Part shown: positions 21,496 to 38,397 of the stretch, piece by piece
Numbering within the stretch: the stretch's first letter is position 1
Layout of the letters: each line of letters starts with the position of its first letter
Source: Lama guanicoe
Lineage: Eukaryota
NCBI GenBank assembly: GCA_013239625.1
Contig: MU053758.1
Span: 372,001 to 436,000, forward strand
Direction of reading: 5' to 3'
Length of the DNA stretch: 64,000 bases
The notes under the pieces: generated by a model
The model's input: only the letters and a program-made list of their open reading frames with translations
Told to the model about the DNA's origin: nothing
The model's database searches: none
Translations under genes and position numbers: made by a program

Positions 21496-22307
21496 TTTTA
21501 GTATTAAAGTGGTTAACAATAGTTCTCATTATTCTGACTTACTCATATTTAAACTCACCTGCTCAGAAAGTTGCAAACCCATACAGTTTCTAACAAAGTC
21601 CTACTAACCATTAAGAAAGGACTTATAACAATAAAAGTTATGTGCACAAGGAAAATCAGGGTAGAAAATGCCAATCAGAGGTATCCAGAGAGAAAGAAGA
21701 CTTTCTGGGACTGAAATAATTTTTCATGCCCATGGTTCAGGGATACGATGCTTCTGTTGGGAGCTAAGAAATCAAGATGAGAAACCTCTGGTATCCAAAC
21801 TAGATAACTGAGTTCTCTGGCATACCATTTTTGGCTACTCTAACACTATCAGTTAGAAAAAGAGGCTGGAGGAGGAGGAGGAAGAAATTCTTAACCTCTG
21901 ATCAATCGCCAATCCCAGAGTGAGAACTGACGACTGAGTACAAGGCCTGACCTTGAATGGAGTGGGACAACTTGGAAAACTAATCACGTAGTACTGGAGT
22001 GAATAGCCAGGTCAGTTCCATCCCAGGGCCCTTATACTGGAGATGCTCAGAAGAATGGGCACTTTAGGTGACAGGCTGACACAGCCAGAGTTAAGCGATT
22101 TAAAAGGTAGTTACCCACAGGATGGAAGTAACAGCCCTCAACACTATGCTTCAGGTAATCGACATGGCTCCACCTATAGGGCAGCAGGACTAAATAAATC
22201 CCTAATAATTCAGGTTAGGCAGGATCTTGGGCATAACTCATAGCAGAAGCTATAGGTTCTACTCTATAAAAATCCATGTACAGTGTAGATCCAAGAGGCT
22301 GGGACAC

Positions 22308-22481
22308 TTATAGAGCATGGCAGAACACGTGGTCTTCAAAGATCTGCTTCTCTTTTGCTGGGAAGGTCTTGCCACAAATTGGACAATTCAAATAAACAGC
22401 TGGCTTGTGCTGCTCCAAGGTGTGATCAAAAATGTCATCAGCAAAGTCTGCTGTGCAGGTGGGGCATGGCTCGATGGAGAG
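22308..22481 (-). CDS. CALCOCO2: CALCOCO2 exon 13, last coding exon (ZF1 and ubiquitin-binding ZF2)
   Basis: tcccag|; LSIEPCPTCTADFADDIFDHTLEQHKPAVYLNCPICGKTFPAKEKQIFEDHVFCHAL-TAA; total CDS 1347 nt = 448 aa. Confidence 0.96.
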   Translation of the reverse strand, partial: LSIEPCPTCTADFADDIFDHTLEQHKPAVYLNCPICGKTFPAKEKQIFEDHVFCHAL

Positions 22482-23021
22482 CTGGGAGGAAGAGCAAAGA
22501 GGTCAGTCTGAATGTAAGCTATACTCAGCAGAGACCGTGTCTGATTTTCTACTATGTCCTCAGCACCTATCGTAATGCTTGCAGATGGTGGGTGATCAAG
22601 AATTAGAGGATGAATCAACAAAGTCACATCTGGAGACATTCACTGGGGCTTTCTCTAACTCAAAGACTCAAAGGACTTAATATTGCTGAAGTAGCCAGAT
22701 AACTTGCAGCCTGAATGGGTCATGGGCTATACCTTGTTTGGCTACCTGCCCGGTTCACATGGCCTCCCGAGGCCTGCTACTCAACTCAACTCACAGGTGC
22801 AGGTCGTGAGCAGAATGCTGATGGATGATGAATTGTGCATCCCCCACCTCAACAGGCTCTCTCCGATTTAGGCACTGATCAAACTGATCCAGCTGACTCA
22901 GTCTGGAGTTATCAAAATGAACCAGTCTCCCCATGCATGGTTCTCCCATGAACTGGATGGAGCAGGAAGGGAAATTTTCTCAAAGATTTGATGTGGGCAG
23001 TCTTACGAATCAAATACTTAC

Positions 23022-23050
23022 CAGGTTAGGGGCAGAGCTTTCTTGGATAC
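23022..23050 (-). CDS. CALCOCO2: CALCOCO2 exon 12 (29-nt mini-exon)
   Basis: cctcag|; (G)IQESSAPNL; donor CTG|GTAAGT; restores phase between exons 11 and 13. Confidence 0.92.
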
Positions 23051-24105
23051 CTGAGGGTAATAAAGAAGATTTCATTCAATGAAAAAATATCATCCCCAGA
23101 ACACGTTCTCCAACTGTGTGCTAGCAGCTGTTTTCTGTAACCCTCACTGTTCCCCTCCCAGTTCTTTATCCCTCTCTGATACTGCCATATTCTCTCTCTC
23201 TCATAAACACCACTGACTTCGGTGGAGGGGATCTAGGTCAACGATGGAGGGAAAAAATAATGAAGTGGCATTTTCAATAGCCATTATATAATCAGCAAGA
23301 ACAATAAACCTATATGCAGTGTAGAGAAAATGAGATTTTAGTGAAAACAGTAACAATTTAACAAGGAAGTAGACTGGGAATAGATTTTAAGACCGAATCC
23401 AGGCAAACAGTTATGTTTCAAATGAAAAGCTTAAAAATATTTTTAAGGAAAAAAAATAAACTTGTACCCCCGCCTGTTGCAAAGACCTGATTGTGACTGT
23501 TAAGAGAACACGCCTGCTTTAAACTGTCCAAAAAAAGCAAATGAGGTCTCAGATCACTTCTGGAGACAAAAAAAGAGGAAAGTTCCCTGTTTGGCAGGGA
23601 CATCTGACCCCCAGTTCCTTGAATGACAAGACTGGGTGTCACCCCCATTTCCTGTCCTCCAAGCCCCCCAGGGGTCTCCGGGGGGCACACGCCTGCTACC
23701 CTTGGTCAGGCCATCGGGGCGGCTGCCTGTAACAGCCCATTCCTGGGCAGCATATCCCGCCGCTCGCGCTTCCATTTCCAAATCTTAATTAGCTTCCTCA
23801 GCTTTGTATGTGTATATCTTCTACACAGAGACATTTCTCTGATTTATATATTTGGAATATAGCCACGGGACTCAATTTGTGTCTGCTGCCTCTAGGCCAA
23901 TGATCTGATTTGCGTCTCCTAGATTCAGATTTATTTCTCAATTAACACTACTTGCCCAGCAATTTTTCTATTGGGTACTCAGCTTCTGCCCAGCAAGTAT
24001 TAACAATGAGACTGGTCTTAATTAGCATCTCAGACAAAAACAAAATTTAGTAGGGGAAAGGGATACAAGCAGGGGCCTTTCAGCTCGATGGTAAAGTTGT
24101 CTTAC

Positions 24106-24241
24106 CAGAATACGGGTTTCCATAGACAAGTCCTGGGTTTTGTCTTGCACCTCCTTGACTTGAAGTAGGCGCTTGATACGGTAAAGGGTCATAATTCAGA
24201 CCCATGTAACTCAGCAATCTGTTGTTCTCGCTCTTCAAAAG
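24106..24241 (-). CDS. CALCOCO2: CALCOCO2 exon 11 (galectin-8-binding region)
   Basis: tcctag|; LLKSENNRLLSYMGLNYDPLPYQAPTSSQGGARQNPGLVYGNPYS; donor G|GTAAGA; 136 nt. Confidence 0.95.
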
Positions 24242-25921: not shown

Positions 25922-26017
25922 TTCATTTTTTTTTTCTATTGTCTCTTTCTCTCTCTGCAGACCATCGTATAGAATCTTGTTCTCACTCAGTCTCTTTGAC
26001 AGGTCCAAGTTCTGGTC
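25922..26017 (-). CDS. CALCOCO2: CALCOCO2 exon 10
   Basis: tggcag|; DQNLDLSKRLSENKILYDGLQREKETIEKKNE; donor GAA|GTAAGC; 96 nt. Confidence 0.95.
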
Positions 26018-26703
26018 CTGCCAATAAAAAAAATCATTAGGATTAAGATCACATATTGTAGTCTGGATCAAGGTGGGGTAAGACAAGGAGTTTGTAGAGG
26101 ATCTGGCTTTCCAAAGTGGCGGGACTGAGGCGGGGGAGACGCGAACTCGGGTAGGGAGGAGCTGCACCATGAGGAGATGCTGACTTACAGAAAAGTGATT
26201 TAATGAAATGCCTGAAGGCTTGGGCTGGCATCGAGATGCCAGTTTCTTTTGGTTTAGCTGGGAGTTAAGCGACCAGAGAGAAAAAATTAGCTTGGGGAAC
26301 ACCTCAAGGCTGACTTATCATAATTAGGGATAAATGGAGCTTTGTTTAACCCCACCCAACCATGGAAACAATCAGCTTTGTCTTGAATAAACATTTCACT
26401 CAGTGCAGCATGAAGCAGTGAGTCAAGCTGGTGTGACTCCCTTCCGGTGTGAGGATACGCAGCTGGATTCAAGTGACACGGAGGAAGAAGGAATTCTGGG
26501 AGGCGTTTATCCAAGGCCACAAGGAACCCAGACTAGGGTCCTGGGCTCCCCAGTATGATGGGTTCACTGACTAGTTTCACGGACCCAAAACTCACAGGCA
26601 TGCTTCAGCGCTTCCCGTCTCCTGCCTACATACGGACACATGCGCATACCTCACAAAAACACTTAAGCTAATCCTACTGGTTGTGGTGTTTTTTTCCAAG
26701 ATT

Positions 26704-26709
26704 TTTATT
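26704..26709 (-). terminator. Candidate intronic polyadenylation signal (AATAAA) for exon 9b
   Basis: tttatt on + strand; downstream GT/T-rich element gtgtttttgtg on the minus strand near 26651-26661. Confidence 0.4.
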
Positions 26710-26773
26710 TGAATGCTGGTGCCCAAACTGCTGTGCGCTTCTAGCCTCCCCTGAGGTAGCAATGCCAGAGGGG

Positions 26774-26857
26774 CTACCCGATGACAGTGCTGACTGCAGG
26801 CTCCTGGCTCCCCATCCCCATTGGCTCCTGCTGGCTCTTCTGGTCCTGCTTCACTTC
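26774..26857 (-). CDS. CALCOCO2: Putative alternative terminal exon (9b) of CALCOCO2
   Basis: Polypyrimidine tract ctttcttatttctgccttttgag|, phase-0 frame EVKQDQKSQQEPMGMGSQEPAVSTVIG-TAG, AATAAA 65 nt after the stop. Confidence 0.45.
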   Translation of the reverse strand, partial: EVKQDQKSQQEPMGMGSQEPAVSTVIG

Positions 26858-27123
26858 CTCAAAAGGCAGAAATAAGAAAGGACTATCTGAGTCTGCACAG
26901 AAACCTGCAGTTACAAAAACCTTCCCTGAGACCCATGGCTGAGCTGGGGGTCTCTATTTCTGGGTATCCCCAGGCTGGTTTTTGGCCGCACACTCCATCC
27001 CTCCTCTTTTTGGCAGAAAGATAAATTCCTCTCCTTAACAGGGGTGTGCAATCCTCCGGGCTTGGTCCAGGAACCACACACCTTCACACCCCTTGCTTCC
27101 TGGGCCCCTCATCTGTCACCTAC

Positions 27124-27282
27124 CCGTGCGGCAGCCCTGAGCTGCCTGATCTGTCTGTGGAGCCGTTGACACTCTTTGTACTTCTCTAAGAAACAGGCTT
27201 TCCCGGCCTCTACCTTTGCCTTAAGGCGTTCCACCTCTTGTACTAACTGTTCCTCCGCTGCTGCTTTCTTGCTCCTAGGCTC
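27124..27282 (-). CDS. CALCOCO2: Putative extra CALCOCO2 exon (9a), 53-aa coiled coil resembling TAX1BP1
   Basis: Acceptor tgcttcag|, donor CGG|GTAGGT, 159 nt, phase 0-0 like flanking exons 9 and 10, no stop; EPRSKKAAAEEQLVQEVERLKAKVEAGKACFLEKYKECQRLHRQIRQLRAAAR. Confidence 0.75.
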
Positions 27283-29060: not shown

Positions 29061-29147
29061 CGTTAATTCCTGTTGTTTCTTCACTGCGGCAGTTTCTTTC
29101 TGCTTCATCTCCTCCACTGTCTGCTCAAGCTTCTTCTGGTGCTCCTT
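29061..29147 (-). CDS. CALCOCO2: CALCOCO2 exon 9 (coiled coil; ends at GC donor)
   Basis: atgcag|; KEHQKKLEQTVEEMKQKETAAVKKQQELT; 87 nt; the boundary that keeps protein homology and phase is ACG|GCATGT. Confidence 0.9.
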
Positions 29148-29442: not shown

Positions 29443-29565
29443 CTGTTCAGTCAAACTGAGAAAGAGCTGGCCATTTTCCTTTTTCAGGTGCTCCAGCTGC
29501 TCTGTCTTATCTTGAACTTCCTGAACAAGCTTCTCTATTTTTTTCTCTTGTGTTGACAGTTGGGC
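29443..29565 (-). CDS. CALCOCO2: CALCOCO2 exon 8 (coiled coil)
   Basis: ctttag|; AQLSTQEKKIEKLVQEVQDKTEQLEHLKKENGQLFLSLTEQ; donor CAG|GTAGAG; 123 nt. Confidence 0.95.
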
Positions 29566-30166
29566 CTAAAGCAGAAACAGTGAATATAACCAAGATATAA
29601 AAGAATAAAAACTAAACAGGAATGCTTTACAATGTAGAGTAACATGAAGAGATGTGTGTTCCCCCAGCAATTCCCAAATGCCAAATACTCCTTAGAACTT
29701 CTGCACTTTTCAGCTCTACCTTACACTCTAAGAATCTAAGATTCAAGTGGGAAAAATTCAGCAACTATCCTTTACAGCCCCTCTTTAAGGCCCAGCTTCC
29801 TAAAAATGAGAACAGTTCTGCTGCTACCTGCTTTACATTCCAGGCTTCTGAGTGAGATTTTGCTTGAAAAGATTTTGTAGTTAAAAGAAAAAAGTTAGTA
29901 TTGGTATAGAGGCCGGTCATCATCTTAAGAGCTCACGATAAATATAAACTGAGCAAATGATTCGGTTCTCTGGGGACTGTGACTATCAAAACAAGGGTGA
30001 GGGGGGCTAAGACTGGCAAACACACACTCTGAAAGTGTAGTCTGCTGCTCTGAAAGGTCCACCCTCAGGCACTAGCTACAGTGATCTGCATCTTCCTGGG
30101 CCACCGGAGTTGGAGTGGTGGCAAGGCTAAGAAAATATACTTTGGCAAAGGCTTGGCGTTTCCTAC

Positions 30167-30236
30167 CTGAAGCTGATCCACTCTGACTCCCATCTTCTCA
30201 TTTTCTGAGGACATCTTCTGGTTTTGTTCTTTTAGT
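30167..30236 (-). CDS. CALCOCO2: CALCOCO2 exon 7 (coiled coil)
   Basis: ccacag|; LKEQNQKMSSENEKMGVRVDQLQ; donor CAG|GTAGGA; 70 nt. Confidence 0.95.
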
Positions 30237-30615
30237 CTGTGGAGGTGGAGATGACTATGTGAAAAATATGCTAATTCCAGGTCAGCTCCTCCAGACCTTA
30301 AATGATTTAAGGCTGCCTTGGCCCTAAGCCTGCATTTAAAATCCACCAGTCTCTTCTTCAGTCCTGTTTTGGCTTCCTGACCTCAAACTGCAAGAATTCA
30401 ATATTTAACAGTAACACTTGAATTCAGGTAATTTGTCCTTATCCATTCTAATTCTCTAACCTAGAGTCAAAGAGTTCATGAGTCAAAGAGGGAGAACCAT
30501 ACTTATCATTGTCACGATAGGAAGACTGTTTTCTAACAAATTCTAGAAATCTAATCTGACCCAACTAAAGGTATCTGTAACACAAAACCTCCTCCCATCC
30601 AAGGACCACACTCAC

Positions 30616-30704
30616 TGAAGCAGCTCTGTCTCCCAGCAGTCCTTCTGCTCTTTCATTTTCTGTTCCAACTTCTTATTGACGCTCTTCAGGGTTTCTAGCT
30701 CCTC
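30616..30704 (-). CDS. CALCOCO2: CALCOCO2 exon 6 (coiled coil)
   Basis: ctgcag|; EELETLKSVNKKLEQKMKEQKDCWETELL(Q); donor CA|GTGAGT; 89 nt. Confidence 0.95.
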
Positions 30705-31385
30705 CTGCAGTTGGAAACGTCAAAGAGACTGACCATTTCTAAGACAGTGTTTAGTATCTCAGGCAGTCAACAAATACTTAAGCACTTACTATCTGTCAGG
30801 CATAGCAGTGAATGAAATATCCAAGTAAAGAGATTTCCATATTAAAATATTCAAGTTTGTTCTTCCTATATTAAAAACGCATCTACCTTAATTTCTCTTC
30901 TACTGGAGCTTCTATCTGTCCATTAATTCACTAGGCAAATGTTTAATGAGCGCCTATTATGTACCAAACACCGTTCTGGTACTGCAAACACAACACTGGA
31001 TGAAATAAAGTTGCTTTTTCTCTTAAAAGAGTGCTGTCCAATAAATTCATGAAAACCACCCATGTAATTAAAGCATTTTAATAACCACATTAAAACAAGT
31101 AAAAAGAAATAGATGAAATTAATTTTACTAATAGCCTATGTATTTAATCCAAAATATCTATATCATTTCAATATGTAAACATAATCTATGTATTTAATCC
31201 CAAATATCTATAATATCATTTCAATAAGTAAACAATGAAAAGGAAATATCTAACATACTAAAATCGGTGCCAGATATTATTATAAGGGAATAAGATCACA
31301 AGCAAAACAGAAAATGGTGCTGGATAAGAGGCAGCATCCAATTCCAACCTCCATACGCCAAGTTCACCTCTAAGCAGCTTCTTAC

Positions 31386-31511
31386 CTGCTTCTTTTGGAG
31401 CTCAGCCTGCATTTCTGAGTTCTGCTTCTGGAGGCTGACGCAGCTGTCCTTCAGCTCCTGGTTTTCTTTGCAAAGTTCCTTGTTGTGCTCCTCAATCTCT
31501 TCCACTTCACC
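31386..31511 (-). CDS. CALCOCO2: CALCOCO2 exon 5 (coiled coil)
   Basis: tcgtag|; GEVEEIEEHNKELCKENQELKDSCVSLQKQNSEMQAELQKKQ; donor CAG|GTAAGA; 126 nt. Confidence 0.96.
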
Positions 31512-31791
31512 CTACGAAAAAGCATTCTATAAACTCGTATTTGGCCCTTTATAGCTCAGTGGATATTCATGTCCCTCCAGCAGAAAATTCCCAGAGGCTG
31601 GGACGGCTAGGGTCTGGGGGATTCTCTATCACTGTCAGCACAGTACCCCAAACGGAATCAGCTCCTTGGTGTGTAGGGAAGGGGTTAAGAGAGGTATGTC
31701 TATAAAACTGCAGCACTAAGCCTGCCGTTACCAAGAAAGAAAGATTTTTTTTAAAAATGAGACCACAAAAACTTAAAAGAGGGAATGATAA

Positions 31792-31925
31792 GGGGGGAGG
31801 GTATAGCTCAAGTGGTAGAGCATATGCTTAGCATGCAGAAGTTCCTGGGTTCAATCCCTAGCATCTCCTCTAAAAGTAAATACATAAATCAACCTAATTA
31901 TCTCTCCCCACTCCAAAAAAAAAAA
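31792..31925 (+). mobile_element. Vic-1-type SINE (intron 4)
   Basis: Consensus match; TSD aaaagagggaa(t/a)gata. Confidence 0.9.
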
Positions 31926-32498
31926 AAAAGAGGGAAAGATAGAAGAATGTTTTTTCTTGCAAACAGTTAACACTGTTTGTTTCTCCTACTGGACTTAGCT
32001 CCTTGAGATCAGGACACAGTTTTAATTGACTCTTCACTGCATCCCTAGTGCCTACCATAGTGCTGGATGGAAGCAGGTGTCCTGTAAATAACTGAGTAAG
32101 TAAATGAATCTAATGTTCATATATGACAAGCTCGGGGCCAGAACTAAAAGATACAAAGAAGAACATTTGGTACCTTTCTCCTTGAAGGAGCTTATAAAAT
32201 TGACTGCGGTGATAAGATGTGCAGATGACAAAACTTAAGTAACTGGAAAAGTGAAGGAGACAAATGAATGCCAACTGAGTTACAGAAGTTTTAGATAAAG
32301 GAAAAATCTGTTATGATTCTTGTTAACATTCCGAAGTCATTCCCTTAGGAATGCTGGGTTTGAGTGGGTACTGTATATGTTTTTCCCAATAGTATCTGTG
32401 TTAAATATCCAATAAAGGCTTACTGACTAGAATTTCACCCTACCCTGGAACTGCTGCTCTTAATGGCAGAAGGAGACTGAGATGAGATGTTTACAGAC

Positions 32499-32632
32499 CT
32501 GAGTGGTAACAACCAGGATGTCCTCCTCATTTTCTGGACGGAACTGGAAAGGGATACTTGCTCCCCGGACCACACCATCCTGATCCACATAGCAGAACTG
32601 GTAATACTCATCATCCTTGGGCAGGTAGTAAG
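32499..32632 (-). CDS. CALCOCO2: CALCOCO2 exon 4 (end of SKICH and LC3C-binding cLIR ILVV)
   Basis: tttcag|; (A)YYLPKDDEYYQFCYVDQDGVVRGASIPFQFRPENEEDILVVTTQ; donor CAG|GTCTGT; 134 nt; phase matches exon 3. Confidence 0.96.
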
Positions 32633-32763
32633 CTGAAAACAGAACATGATTTTTAATCTAAAATAAGGTCTATTCAGAAAACTAAAAACCTGAAAGTCTT
32701 TCATCTGCTCCAGAAAGCTCAAGCTCAAGGGAATTAATTAGTCTTGGCCACTGTTTCAGTACC

Positions 32764-32852
32764 TTTTTTCTTTAATGGAGGCGTGGGGGATTGAACCCAG
32801 GATCTCCTGCATGCTAAGCCCGTGCTGTATACCACTGAGCTATATCCACCCC
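32764..32852 (-). mobile_element. Short Vic-1-like / tRNA-derived SINE (intron 3)
   Basis: tRNA-Ala-like head, short A tail, TSD ttca(g/a)taccttt. Confidence 0.8.
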
Positions 32853-32887
32853 GGTCTTCAATACCTTTGATCCAGTATTTTTCTCAC

Positions 32888-32990
32888 CTTTGAACTGGAC
32901 TTCCTCCTGTTTGGCTGATTCGCTGTTTAGGTCAACGGGCAAAGTAACCCACATGAAGGTGTAATACTCACGGGTTGTCTTCCATCCCAC
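32888..32990 (-). CDS. CALCOCO2: CALCOCO2 exon 3 (SKICH)
   Basis: ttgcag|GTG GGA TGG; VGWKTTREYYTFMWVTLPVDLNSESAKQEEVQFK; donor G|GTGAGA; 103 nt. Confidence 0.96.
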
Positions 32991-33462
32991 CTGCAATGAA
33001 AAGGGGCTCTTGTTCAGTGTCTGAAAGTGCTCAGTGGATTCTTCTTATTTTGACTATGTCTTCTTAATATTTGTTTACACTGAAATTACAATCAAATGAG
33101 TTCATTATGACAAGATCTACCCACCATTGATCAAATCTTGTTTTTTGATGTAACTGATGATTAACGATGTTGAGAATCTCTCCATGTGCCTGTTGTCCAT
33201 CTACATTTCCTCTTTGGAAAAATGTCTGTTTAGTTCTTATGATAACTATGTATATGATTAAAAATTGGTATGCACACACACAGTCCATATTACTTGTCTG
33301 AGAAGGAAACAAAAACTGGCCATTCAACACCCAGGACAAGAATTCCAAAAATTCCATCTCCAATTCAGATACTAAAGTGAGAGTGGTTGGAAAGAATTTG
33401 TGGGAATGTGAACTTTGACCCCACTATCTTCTTATAACAGTGTTCTTAGAACATCTTAATCA

Positions 33463-33597
33463 AGGGGAAGGCTATAGTTCAAGTGATAGAGTGCATGCTC
33501 CACATGCAAGAGGTCCCGGGTTTAATCCCCAGTAACTCCTCCAAGCAGAAATCAATGAAGAAACCTAATTACACCCCCTCAGAAAACAAACAATATA
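33463..33597 (+). mobile_element. Vic-1-type SINE (intron 2)
   Basis: Diverged consensus; TSD agaacatc(t/a)taatca. Confidence 0.85.
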
Positions 33598-33837
33598 AGA
33601 ACATCATAATCAGAAAGCACTTCTGATCTTGGTTTCCATTGGTTTGTCCTCTCCCTTATCCAATTCAGTCTTGTCACCTATATCAACCTGATTATATTAT
33701 TGCATTTAAAAAAGCATTTTAAATAATAATTTTAAATAATGTGTGTTGGGGTTGGACGGCAAGAGAGTTCTTAGATTATAAGGTAACCAGATATCTGAGT
33801 CCAGCCTATATAGTTTTCTTTCTTCAGTGTTTTTCTT

Positions 33838-35065
33838 TTTTAATGTTTATTTTTAAAAATTGAATGATTCTTTAAATTCTACGGTGCTTTACAATTTTCA
33901 AGTTTCACAAACATGATTTCATGTAATCCCATAACCCTTTTTTTCCCCTACCTCTACATTACCCTTCCTTTTTTCCCTCTCCCCACCAGTTTGTTCTCTG
34001 TGTCTGTGAGTCTGCCTCCATTTTGTTTTACTCACTAGTTTGTTGTATTTTTTAGATTCCACATATAAGAGATATCATACTGTATTTGTCTTCCTCTCTC
34101 TGACTTATTTCACTTAGCATAATGCCCTACAAGTCCAACCACGATGCTACAAATGGCAAAATTTCATTCTTTTTAAAAGCTGAATAGTATTCCACTGTGT
34201 GTGTGTGTGTGTGTGTGTATACACACACACACATATATATACATTACATGTTCTTTAGCCATTCCTCTGTTGATGGACACTTAGGTTGCTTGCATATCTT
34301 GGCAACTGTAAATAATAACAAACGCTGGGGTGCATGTACCTTTTCAAATCAGTGTTTTTGTCTTTTTTTGGATATGTACCCAGGAATGGAATTGCTGGGT
34401 CATACGGCAGTTCTGTTTTTAGTTTTTTGAGAAACCTCCATACTGCTTTCCACAGTGGCTGCAGTAATTTACATTGCCACCCACAGCATACGAGGGCTCC
34501 CTTTTCTCCACATCCTCGCCAATGTTTTGTCATTTGTATTCTTTTTGATGACAGTCATTGTGACAGGTATGAGGTGATAACTCATTGTGGTTTTGGTTTG
34601 CGTTTCCCTCATTAGCGATGTTGAGCATTTTTCCATGTGCCTGTTGTCCATCTACATTTCCTCTTTGGAAAACTGTCTGTTTAGTTCTGCCCATTTTTAA
34701 AATTGGGTTATTTGTTTTTTTGATGTTGAGTTGTGTAGAGCTGTTTATATATGTTGGATATTAACCCTTTATTAGTCCATCATTTGTAAATATCTTTGTG
34801 TTTGTTGATGGTTTCCTTTGCAGTGCAAAAGCTTGTAAGTTTAATTATGTCCCATTTGTCTATATTTGCTTTTGTTTCCTTTGCTTTAAGAGATGGATCC
34901 AAAAAAATATTGCTGCAGTTTATGTCACAGAGTGTTCTGCCTGTTTTCCTTTAGGAGTTTTATAGTAGTCGGCCTTACATTTAGGTCTTTAATTCATTTT
35001 GAGTTTATTTTAGTATATGGTGTTAGACCATGTTCTCATTTCATTCTTTTACATGTAGCTGTCCA
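33838..35065 (-). mobile_element. 5'-truncated LINE-1 in intron 2
   Basis: ORF2 C-terminal remnants ([18 protein letters not shown]); 15-bp TSD ttcagtgtttttctt at 33823-33837 and 35066-35080. Confidence 0.9.
34196..34240. repeat. (TG)n-(CA)n-(TA)n microsatellite in L1
   Basis: Seen directly. Confidence 0.9.
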
Positions 35066-35698
35066 TTCAGTGTTTTTCTTAATGCCTGCTTAGTGAAAGC
35101 GTTTTGGTGGTAAAGATAACAACAATCTGGTAGTCATAAAGGCCTCTTCTAGGTACAAAATACAGTAAGTCATAAAACATAAGGATACTGTAAAATATGC
35201 CCCAGAGCAGAAAGCTGGCTAAGTGGAAAATATTCTCATTAAATACGAAGAGAGGTAAAAGATGGCTCAAATCATTTCTGGAAGATAAGAGCCCACCAGA
35301 GAATAAAAAGGGAGATGTTGTGTCTTCAAGGGGAGAACACTCACCAAGTGAGAAGCAAAATTACATTCACTGCCATGTTCTGACCCTGCCTGAACCCAGT
35401 GGGAAGAGAAAAGAACTAAAAATAAATTCTATGCTTATATATTGAGGAATCAGAGCAGGGTTGAAAAGGCGACACTGAAAGCTGAACATACCAGGGCATG
35501 TTTTAGTGTCTCATTAATATACACCCCATTGCTGTAAGCATCTCAGAGCCAAGGCAGCCTGTGGTGGAACAGGAAGCAGAAATTTTATAGAGTCTTCATT
35601 CACATCCTGGAGTTTCTTAATGTACTGTGACCAAAATATCATCTGGGAAGGCCTGAGAATTACTGCTGCCTTGGAATAAGGAAACAACTTCTAGCCAC

Positions 35699-35796
35699 CT
35701 GCAATTTCTGTCCTTGGCTCCTCCATCGGGGTTGTCCCAGTCTGCCTCTTGCAGTCTGCTGTCTCCCCTCCCTGAAATCTTGGAACACGTAAATGC
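35699..35796 (-). pseudogene. Non-functional orthologue of a human CALCOCO2 alternative cassette exon in intron 2
   Basis: Starts GCA TTT ACG TGT (AFTC), ends RWRSQGQKLQ, resembling the recalled human isoform insert AFKCFQD...KWRSQGQKLQ; acceptor is GG not AG; 98 nt, out of frame. Confidence 0.55.
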
Positions 35797-36538
35797 CCAG
35801 GTGACGGACCACGGGGCTACACACTGAAGGAAGCAAAGCTGACTCCTACCAGGCTTTGTCACTGGTGGTGGCTTTCGCTGTATGGAGAAGATGTAGTGCT
35901 GCACATTCAGAAACACCTCAGGAGCGCCTACCTGGAGGCAGGAATTACTGGCAGCGTTAGGGGAGATAAGGATTTGAGGACTGTGATGAAGACAACACTG
36001 AAGGAACCCTGGGAGCACTTTAGATAGGAAGGCCAGAACTCCACATTCAACCCTTAATTGTCTAATTCACCATCTGTTGTTCAAAGGAATTCAGCAGAAA
36101 AGGGGAAGAAAAACAGAGGTCTGGGAGTCAAACCAACTTGCTTAACCACTGGGAGATCTTGGGGAAGTCCCCATCTTGAGTATACTCATTGTATTCATCT
36201 GTGCACAAGCGGTAATACTGCTTACCCCAGGGCGCTGCTGTGCTGTCAGGATGAAATTAGGAAACACGGTCAGAGACACAGACACACAGGCACACATACA
36301 CAGACACACACACAAACTCATCAAAGACCTAGCACACTGTATATTCTCTAAAAGGTTGTGTTCTTTCCTTATCAGTCTTAAAATTTTCTTTCAGGCTTTG
36401 GGTGGTGTTCAAATCAATAGCTTTATGGATAAAGAATATCAGAGGGCATTCTCTGGACTAACCACGACAGTGGCATGGCAATACCGTTGAAATGCATGAA
36501 GTATTTCAAATATTTTTTAAAATGCTTTTAAACATTTT

Positions 36539-36670
36539 TAATTTTAATTTTGGGGGGGGGGTAATTAGGTTTTTATGTATGTATTTATTTTAATGGAGGT
36601 GCTGGGGATTGAACCCAGGACCTCACACATGCTAGGCGTGCACTCTACCACTGACCTATACCCTGCCTCC
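36539..36670 (-). mobile_element. Vic-1-type SINE (intron 2)
   Basis: Consensus match; TSD taaacattt. Confidence 0.88.
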
Positions 36671-36864
36671 TAAACATTTGTTTTTAAAGAGCGAAAGATT
36701 TTCATTTGGTTTAAAGTGAAGTCCTCACTGCAAGTTGCTAAGGGCTTGGAGATTTACAAACAATTAGTCTGAGCAAAATGGAAATATGATTGCATTGCAA
36801 AAAAAGTTAGATTACATTTCAAAACATACGTAATTTTGAATCATTCTTTTAAAATTATCTATAC

Positions 36865-37100
36865 CTGCATTGTCCAATATGCTAGCCATGAGCCACATGA
36901 GGCTACTTAAATTAAAATGAATTAAAATTAAGTAAAATTTAAAAATCAGTTACTTAGTCACACTAGCCACATTTTAAGTGCTATTAGCCACATGTGCCTA
37001 GAGGCTACTGTACTGGACAGCAAAGATGTAACTTGATCATTGAAAGTTCTACTGGCTAGTGTTGGTCATAGATAGTTCTATTGGACAGCTTTGCTATATA
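36865..37100. mobile_element. MER3/MER33-like hAT relic
   Basis: tgtccaatatgctagccatgagccacatg...ctagccacattttaagtgc...ctgtactggacagc. Confidence 0.7.
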
Positions 37101-38217
37101 CAGGGAAGAGAAAAACAACTATCATCTTTCCAAAACAGAAAACATTCTGGTATGTCAGTTTTCTGTGTTAGAACAGCTTTAGTCTAATGACTCAATCGCC
37201 TGCAGTGTCAGGAGCTGTCATGACACCTGCCAGTGTCCCTCCAGTTGTCTACTAGCCCCGCCTCTAAACACCAGCCCCGTTCCCTCCAGCTTCCATCGCT
37301 CTGCCACTTAGCTTGGAATTCCAAACAATCAAAGAAAAGGAATTCAGTGAGGGATGTGAATGTGCACCAGCTCCTTCACAGTACAGTCAAGAATGATGTC
37401 TAATTTCAGGATGAACAGCGTAGGCCAACAAGCACATGACATACTGAGGTGTCGAAACAAAGGTCACTGATGTTGGGACTCAGCATTGTAAATTACTTAA
37501 TTTGACCTTTATCTTGTCTCTGGAAATAGGGAGATTTGTCATTAGGGTGTGTGAAAGTATAAGTGTGTGAGTGTGTGTGTGTGTGATGTCAGAGACAGAG
37601 ACACAGATGCAGGGACGTGGGGAGGTAGAGAGTAAGTTGGCTATAATAAAAAAGTACCATTTCTGTACTTGAACTGACAGAGTGAGCAGACACTGGAAGA
37701 GGTCGCCAAGGGAGCCTGTAAACTTTCTGTTCTCGGAAACCTTCACAAAGAAGCAAGACACGCTTATTCAGGAACAAACTTCTTGGATGTTGAACAAGGT
37801 AGTTTTTCAACATCTTTCCAGATTTGTAATACTCATATTAAAATAAATTAAACACTGTATTAAGTAAGAAAGTGATGTTTAAATTCACAGAAATTATGTA
37901 AGGGGCCACCTATACCAGTCAAGTAAGTATTTCAAAATTGGATAATTAAAAAAAATTATATTTGGTCTATGAAAGTATAAAGCAACTTGGGGATTTTATG
38001 ATTTGCTATCTTATTTTAGCTTAAGAATGAGATTAAACTTTGAGTGCCACAGCACATGTTGGTGTGTAAAGGGGGAAATGCTAAGGAGGTTAGTTTAGGA
38101 TTTTCACATTGGCCAGATATACATGCAAAATGCTTATAATACAAGGATAGTCACACACTCAGGTAACTACGATTCACCTCTAGTTCTGAGTCACTTGGTA
38201 CTAAATTAACCACTTAC

Positions 38218-38397
38218 TCTAAAGATGCCAATCCAATCCTTTCGACGGGGAATGAAATGCTGGGTGAGGGTGTAACGACACGTGATGTCCCCTCCAGGGA
38301 CATAGAACTTCTCCACACTGTTAAAGATGACCTGAGAGAAATGACAATGGTCCAGCAAGACAGCTGATGTGGGGGGATCTTCTATTGTCTCTTCCAT
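38218..38397 (-). CDS. CALCOCO2: CALCOCO2/NDP52 exon 2, first coding exon (aa 1-60, start of SKICH domain)
   Basis: Acceptor CAG at 38410-38408, Kozak ccaccATGG; MEETIEDPPTSAVLLDHCHFSQVIFNSVEKFYVPGGDITCRYTLTQHFIPRRKDWIGIFR matches the NDP52 N-terminus; donor AGA|GTAAGT; 180 nt. Confidence 0.97.

Follow-up and report, generated by a model that had tools for sequence, protein, structure and literature searches.

Exon 9b of CALCOCO2, the gene for the autophagy receptor NDP52, may be a conserved splice-and-polyadenylation cassette whose short protein product serves as a ubiquitin-independent, partner-recruited FIP200/TBK1 adaptor resembling TAX1BP1(1-506), a reading that we put forward tentatively and consider nearly as likely to be right as wrong. 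The window, a stretch of 64,000 nucleotides of guanaco DNA, holds the CALCOCO2/NDP52 gene on its minus strand, and exon 9a there is 100% identical to an alpaca RefSeq protein. The parts of the gene on which the argument turns are these:

29443 to 38397, minus strand: upstream coding exons, with SKICH, the cLIR region and the coiled coil (residues 1-275)
29061 to 29147, minus strand: exon 9, ending in a non-canonical GC donor
27124 to 27282, minus strand: exon 9a, 53 codons, phase 0-0, a putative helix homologous to TAX1BP1 421-466 (N domain)
25922 to 26017, minus strand: exon 10, first exon of the competing C-terminus (P0171)
22306 to 24241, minus strand: exons 11-13, with the galectin-8 region and zinc fingers, not in the short isoform

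The GC donor of exon 9 is overrun in several models (camel P0172, bat P0018, and rabbit Logan P0194 and P0195; 29061-29053, minus strand), which again points to weak and variable splicing in this part of the gene. A 158-nt open-frame segment bounded by AG and GT separates exons 12 and 13 (22952-22795, minus strand) and is possibly a frameshifting cassette, and short tRNA-like SINE copies can be made out by eye in the introns (about 27990-27900, 31900-31795, 32840-32775, 33545-33465 and 24725-24655).

The initial annotation had proposed that a pyrimidine tract ending in GAG, 266 nt past exon 9a, opens a 27-codon purine-rich phase-0 frame that runs to TAG and is followed by AATAAA and a GT/T-rich element. 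Each of these elements is present on the minus strand:

26858 to 26883, minus strand: polypyrimidine tract (20 of 23 positions pyrimidine) and GAG acceptor of exon 9b, a Glu codon in the read-through ORFs of other mammals
26774 to 26857, minus strand: coding part of exon 9b, last coding exon of the 384-aa isoform, 27 codons plus TAG
26704 to 26773, minus strand: 3' UTR of 64 nt and AATAAA (26709-26704), from the sequence and an off-frame comparison with the dunnart
26630 to 26703, minus strand: predicted zone of cleavage, containing an A7 run and followed by a GT/T-rich downstream element, from sequence only
26772 to 26779, minus strand: 5' splice site overlapping the stop, GG/GTAG, from translation of the window and models in Bos, Bubalus bubalis, Macaca fascicularis and mouse lemur
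26789 to 26800, minus strand: second internal donor, in frame after 63 nt, used in two cat models (P0021, P0022)

The intron between the exon 9a donor and the exon 9b acceptor spans 27123-26858 (266 nt), and the tract at its end is the best among the 16 nearby AGs listed. The open frame (26857-26777) is 68% purine and closes with TAG at 26776-26774, 64 nt before the hexamer, and the GT/T-rich stretch lies about 35-55 nt beyond that hexamer. A run of seven A residues 9-15 nt downstream of the hexamer makes internal priming a hazard for oligo-dT mapping. When both strands of the 64 kb window were scanned for an AG preceded by 19 or more pyrimidines in 23 bases, an open frame of 20 codons or more and AATAAA within 120 nt, the one match was exon 9b, a uniqueness that is weak evidence because the thresholds were chosen post hoc with exon 9b already known. 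AATAAA by itself is frequent, occurring 14 times in the 15.7 kb of the CALCOCO2 gene. A 5' splice site coincides in part with the exon 9b stop, and some species' models accordingly use the exon internally; in the translated window, splicing from that donor would leave an exon of 80 nt, shift the frame and reach a stop 10 codons into exon 10.

The 384-aa protein that the initial annotation expected from 9-9a-9b splicing coincides exactly with a predicted RefSeq model, alpaca CALCOCO2 X4 (XP_072794983.1, P0197, 384 aa), which has both the 27124>26857 junction and the exon 9b stop. Every exon of this model can be located in the window, and 383 of its 384 residues agree, residues 305-357 coming from 27282-27124 and 358-384 from 26857-26777. 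The isoform was thus already a predicted catalogue entry in RefSeq, which also has short isoforms for rabbit (XP_008269561.1), armadillo (XP_058140015.1), macaque (XP_011723773.2) and dunnart (XP_074117352.1). Exon 9b occurs in 26 of the 76 collected proteins having both SKICH and exon 9a, and each of those 26 carries 9a, in a collection that was seeded with exon 9a and could miss forms joining exon 9 directly to 9b. A further search, using the region around the 9a/9b junction, brought up 12 proteins, of which 11 had already been collected. The same stop ends 17 of the 26 models, in 14 species from primates to marsupials (alpaca, swamp buffalo, a deer, pangolin, armadillo, rabbit, capuchin, three macaques, snub-nosed monkey, baboon, dunnart and antechinus). 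Among the other nine, five use the stop-overlapping donor and enter exon 10 out of frame, two are the cat models with the 63-nt in-frame donor, one tree-shrew model extends as far as the zinc fingers and one from a kangaroo rat ends four residues beyond the common stop. Outside annotated proteins, an unannotated Logan contig of 1,503 nt has an ORF of 73 aa (P0216) that reads across the 9a-9b junction, implying a spliced template in at least one other mammal. The armadillo models show a two-way switch, with an X1 that lacks 9a and has zinc fingers and an X2 with 9a-9b; alpaca, cattle and others additionally join 9a to exon 10. Other routes also end soon after 9a, namely reading on past the 9a donor, a form from an upstream acceptor at 26904 that meets a stop just inside exon 9b, and an early stop in gibbons.

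Conservation of the acceptor and stop, which the initial annotation would have looked for among artiodactyls, reaches far beyond them to marsupials. The GAG acceptor had been counted as a weakness, an objection that loses its force: the codon before exon 9b is Glu in all 10 of the 10 genomic read-through ORFs listed, from 4 independent clusters, and with a Glu codon there and an obligatory AG, the acceptor is conserved as GAG. Identity of exon 9b to alpaca is 63-96% in 15 species, similar to that of constitutive coiled-coil exons. We derived the dunnart sequence from two models that read the exon in different frames (P0028, P0034) and together fix nearly all of its bases; in a scan of metagenome contigs for host DNA, none of the 592 pattern matches was a relative. 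Over the last 24 codons of 9b, a comparison confined to this one species pair, dunnart and alpaca have 14 identical codons, 3 silent changes, 6 replacements and 1 ambiguous replacement, and 60 of 69 bases match, as do 20 of 23 third positions, with no excess of silent change. The off-frame translation of the UTR and hexamer matches dunnart at 14 of 25 residues without an indel (shuffle maximum 9 of 25, mean 1.9), and the dunnart peptide fits the hexamer without proving AATAAA conserved. The intron just 5' of the acceptor is also similar in the two species. The sole indel seen in 9b, four additional residues in marsupials, keeps the frame.

Because there is no silent excess and the 3' UTR is conserved without indels, we infer constraint at the RNA level: selection on exon 9b looks as if it acts on splicing and 3'-end signals, so that what is conserved would be an RNA element and a termination point. 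The 27-residue tail, which has no Pfam match above cut-off and is predicted by AlphaFold to be disordered with low pLDDT, is probably largely a passenger. RNA structure or a known RNA family as the cause was rejected, as a search of the region found no Rfam family and folding gave nothing unusual (z = +1.55). Nor is there a long overlapping ORF, among the 14 listed from either strand, to account for the conservation. These null results weigh against the idea that exon 9b is low-level splicing noise caught by annotation pipelines, its conservation being due to something else at the locus, and so do the one acceptor and stop common to the 14 species, placentals and marsupials alike, and the conserved UTR around the signal. 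Donor and acceptor use does differ between species' models, and the A7 run could prime oligo-dT, as noise would have it; we find this explanation highly improbable.

A constraint of this kind is also what one might expect if exon 9b were an attenuator that draws 9a transcripts away from full-length NDP52, by polyadenylating them early or by acting as a frameshifting poison exon, with the protein incidental. Besides the substitution pattern and the conserved UTR and upstream intron, this explanation can draw on the GG/GTAG donor, whose use leads to a stop 10 codons into exon 10 with three more junctions downstream and which five models elsewhere employ, and on the featureless 9b tail. Conservation at the RNA level would fit pure down-tuning equally well as it fits the adaptor reading. 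However, a transcript that ends at 9b carries its stop in the final exon and would be spared decay, the single indel preserves the frame, and the codon comparison covers only one species pair and 24 codons. Exon 9a is moreover strongly conserved as protein (72-92% identity in 25 comparisons), so that the short product carries an intact conserved module. We consider attenuation to be unlikely, though it is the likeliest of the rivals to the adaptor reading.

The adaptor reading, by contrast, takes its content from exon 9a. Against human TAX1BP1 421-466 this exon gives an ungapped alignment with a score of 92, whereas shuffles reached at most 58 (1,500 plain) and 65 (1,500 heptad-preserving), and the five other NDP52 coiled-coil exons tested and exon 10 scored 28-48 against TAX1BP1. 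Run on 119 longer family members, an exon 9a profile found a single site of 19-31 bits in proteins named TAX1BP1, the next-best sites reaching at most 7.5; it gave 50-53 bits in three shark and ray proteins and 18 bits in one unnamed Logan protein. An HMM search of 1.84 billion representatives returned 14 hits, including two TAX1BP1-exon ORFs (E 1.4e-5 and 6.1e-5); judging by their flanks, the TAX1BP1 exon may be about 50 codons long with borders like those of 9a. Judged by these alignments, exon 9a is homologous to TAX1BP1 421-466, within the NBR1-binding N domain. It had no Pfam match above cut-off, and a PDB search with it found nothing under E 0.9; the AlphaFold model places a separate helix at residues 315-357, after a break at 301-314.

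The relationship has its limits. Exon 9a covers only 421-466 of an N domain that spans 420-506, and its mid-helix is strongly unlike TAX1BP1. TAX1BP1 R441 aligns to K327, and among 95 redundant proteins the facing position is K in 88, Q in 7 and R in none, the Q occurring in porcupine, mole-rat, chinchilla and guinea pig (P0037, P0040, P0045, P0050). We also asked whether exon 9b continues the match and rejected its homology to TAX1BP1: against the downstream human residues (467-506) p = 0.64, and 2 of 24 comparisons fell below 0.01, both with one fish protein.

The segment also appears outside mammals. In proteins of sharks and rays that bear the label 'tax1-binding protein 1 homolog B-like' (P0054, P0055, P0060, P0220) it is much closer to 9a than to TAX1BP1, and a jawed-vertebrate age is suggested for NDP52 exon 9a. 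In a SKICH tree of 14 of 15 chosen rows, the gar having been left out because it lacks the anchor motif, the shark and ray proteins fell with neither CALCOCO2 nor TAX1BP1. The profile scored at most 1.2 bits in the retrieved bird, gar and salmonid/pike CALCOCO2-type proteins, some of them labelled TAX1BP1-like, and the segment is thus dispensable in the bird and salmonid/pike lineages or isoforms, which counts against the adaptor reading. The CALCOCO2 model of one bird, the kagu (P0052), has a coiled-coil block of about 115 aa three times and no exon 9a match. Four unnamed ORFs (P0219, P0051, P0225, P0226) have a frameshifted or degenerate exon 9a and could represent exon-loss lineages, pseudogenes or assembly errors.

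The consequences of ending at 9b follow from the anatomy of the protein. As the initial annotation held, the short form keeps SKICH, the cLIR region and the coiled coil, while exons 10-13, with the galectin-8 region and zinc fingers, are excluded; in alpaca X1, exon 10 starts at residue 358, the galectin-8 region at 426 and the zinc fingers at 477. Zinc-finger profiles give a weak match to the form of 509 aa (PF18112, E 0.021) and none to those of 384 and 408 aa. ILVV at residues 133-136 is conserved in alignment A2, and we take LVV 134-136 to be the cLIR of NDP52. AlphaFold predicts a long helix at 140-300 in the short isoform; confidence in SKICH was low in the monomer, and only the pattern of helix and disorder is taken from the model. 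A homodimer prediction for residues 276-384 scored 0.13, under the mark of 0.32, and is evidence neither way. Human NDP52(1-316) is reported to be a dimer and to bind FIP200 (PMC8363153). Sequestosome-1-like receptors have been defined by a LIR, an oligomerisation domain and a domain at the C-terminus that binds ubiquitin (PMC9582228); by that definition the short isoform has the LIR and lacks the ubiquitin-binding part.

How might such a protein reach cargo? The N domain of TAX1BP1 (420-506) is reported as needed for NBR1 binding, and TAX1BP1(1-506), which has neither the third coiled coil nor the two zinc fingers, brought NBR1 flux back to 182% of the wild-type level, such truncations being poor as canonical substrates (PMC7737610). 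We propose that weak intron sites, the GC donor of exon 9 and the GAG acceptor of 9b, are used in some transcripts, which would then end at the 9b signal. The product would combine SKICH, cLIR and coiled coil with an N-domain-like helix, and would be without the galectin-8 region, the zinc fingers and the myosin VI site. Its exon 9a helix is predicted to dock on a partner such as NBR1, and its SKICH could recruit FIP200 and TBK1 adaptors with no need of ubiquitin or galectin-8, the protein being placed on cargo by the partner motif, not by ubiquitin. Because exon 9a is homologous to the NBR1-binding N domain, the product would resemble TAX1BP1(1-506), and because termination falls just after the TAX1BP1-like segment, it is likely to reach cargo via a partner and not to be cargo-blind. 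On this reading the transcript is cleaved at the 9b signal, the weak sites come into use under regulation, the protein is stable and its binding is of the NBR1 type, all of which are inferred steps. R441E is reported to abolish TAX1BP1-NBR1 binding (bioRxiv 2024.05.09.593318). Counting against the adaptor reading are the K at the R441 position, with Q in rodents related to the guinea pig, the partial coverage of the N domain and the disputed NBR1 side, where the contact has been assigned both to the FW domain (PMC8410870) and to residues 725-749 (bioRxiv 2024.05.09.593318).

The initial annotation had instead led with a cargo-blind or dominant-negative protein, a priority that we would reverse, given that 9a is the apparent homologue of a ubiquitin-independent NBR1-binding segment and that the matching TAX1BP1 truncation was described as functional, not inhibitory (PMC7737610). 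In its dominant-negative form the proposal is that the short protein dimerises with full-length NDP52, or titrates NAP1/SINTBAD/FIP200, and so damps ubiquitin- and galectin-8-dependent autophagy or lifts NF-kB suppression. The domain anatomy of the short protein and the FIP200-binding dimer of NDP52(1-316) (PMC8363153) are consistent with it, as is the report that human NDP52 with the UBZ deleted or with D439R, when over-expressed, increased basal NF-kB activity in a dose-dependent way (PMC8017197), though that result comes from an over-expressed construct without 9a. It leaves unexplained the presence of 9a in every 9b-bearing model from our 9a-based searches, and the TAX1BP1 counterpart supported NBR1 flux despite being deficient as a canonical substrate (PMC7737610). 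We hold dominant-negative action to be unlikely, though a real rival, while noting that the adaptor, attenuator and dominant-negative readings are compatible and not mutually exclusive.

Apes may be the exception to the adaptor reading. Siamang and Hylobates models stop after five residues of 9b; exon 9a has changes at G331, C334 and R350 in chimpanzee, bonobo and gorilla, and at E320, C342 and R350 in gibbons, with C334 also changed in siamang. All of these positions are invariant in the 20 non-simian sequences of alignment A2. The ape CALCOCO2 models with an early 9b stop (gibbons) or changed 9a residues are P0173, P0186, P0184, P0174 and P0048, a pattern suggesting relaxed selection on 9a and 9b in apes. 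The human NDP52 that has been studied has 446 residues (PMC12049512), which equals the 501 of ape X1 minus a 55-aa simian 9a, and the human canonical form would accordingly lack 9a; no human protein appears among the 15 of 33 ape-cluster members listed. NDP52 has been reported absent from the NBR1-TAX1BP1-p62 complex in human cells. It is tempting to imagine that most mammals have an ancient switch from a ubiquitin/galectin-8 receptor to an NBR1-docked FIP200/TBK1 recruiter, that apes have been losing it, and that the position of NDP52 outside the NBR1 pathway is an ape peculiarity, a scenario that is unlikely to hold in full but not far-fetched.

Nearly all that is known of NDP52 biology comes from the human protein of 446 aa. 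Should the short isoform be made and bind NBR1-type motifs, then livestock, monkeys, rabbits, rodents and marsupials would possess a second NDP52 whose cargo logic differs, and the way in which NDP52 and TAX1BP1 share their work would vary by species. The short isoform would also be a natural test of the TAX1BP1 N-domain model, for which assays exist. Even if exon 9b proves to be an attenuator, it is a conserved and apparently undescribed control point on an innate-immune autophagy receptor. In the full text of open-licence PubMed Central papers and bioRxiv we found no description of the isoform; one cattle exon-usage paper lists a CALCOCO2 exon 8, which could not be matched to exon 9b (PMC13704069). 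Alternative last exons are a known kind of switch, and the 9b isoform is in RefSeq yet apparently undescribed.

Among known systems, the RefSeq short CALCOCO2 isoforms are alike in exon chain, junction and stop, and are predicted entries without functional description. Human canonical NDP52 (446 aa; PMC12049512, PMC8017197) shares SKICH, cLIR and coiled coil and has the galectin-8 region and zinc fingers in addition. The truncated NDP52 of mouse (PMC4599966) similarly lacks the parts that bind galectin-8, ubiquitin and myosin VI and is said to keep a SKICH-dependent cargo, phospho-tau, but as described there it is a species-wide truncation with no switchable last exon. TAX1BP1(1-506) (Ohnstad et al. 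2020, PMC7737610) is like short NDP52 in having SKICH, a coiled coil, an N-domain helix and a basic residue at the R441 position and in lacking zinc fingers; it differs in being an engineered truncation of a paralogue, whereas short NDP52 is a predicted natural isoform in which 9a matches only 421-466 and K stands for R441.
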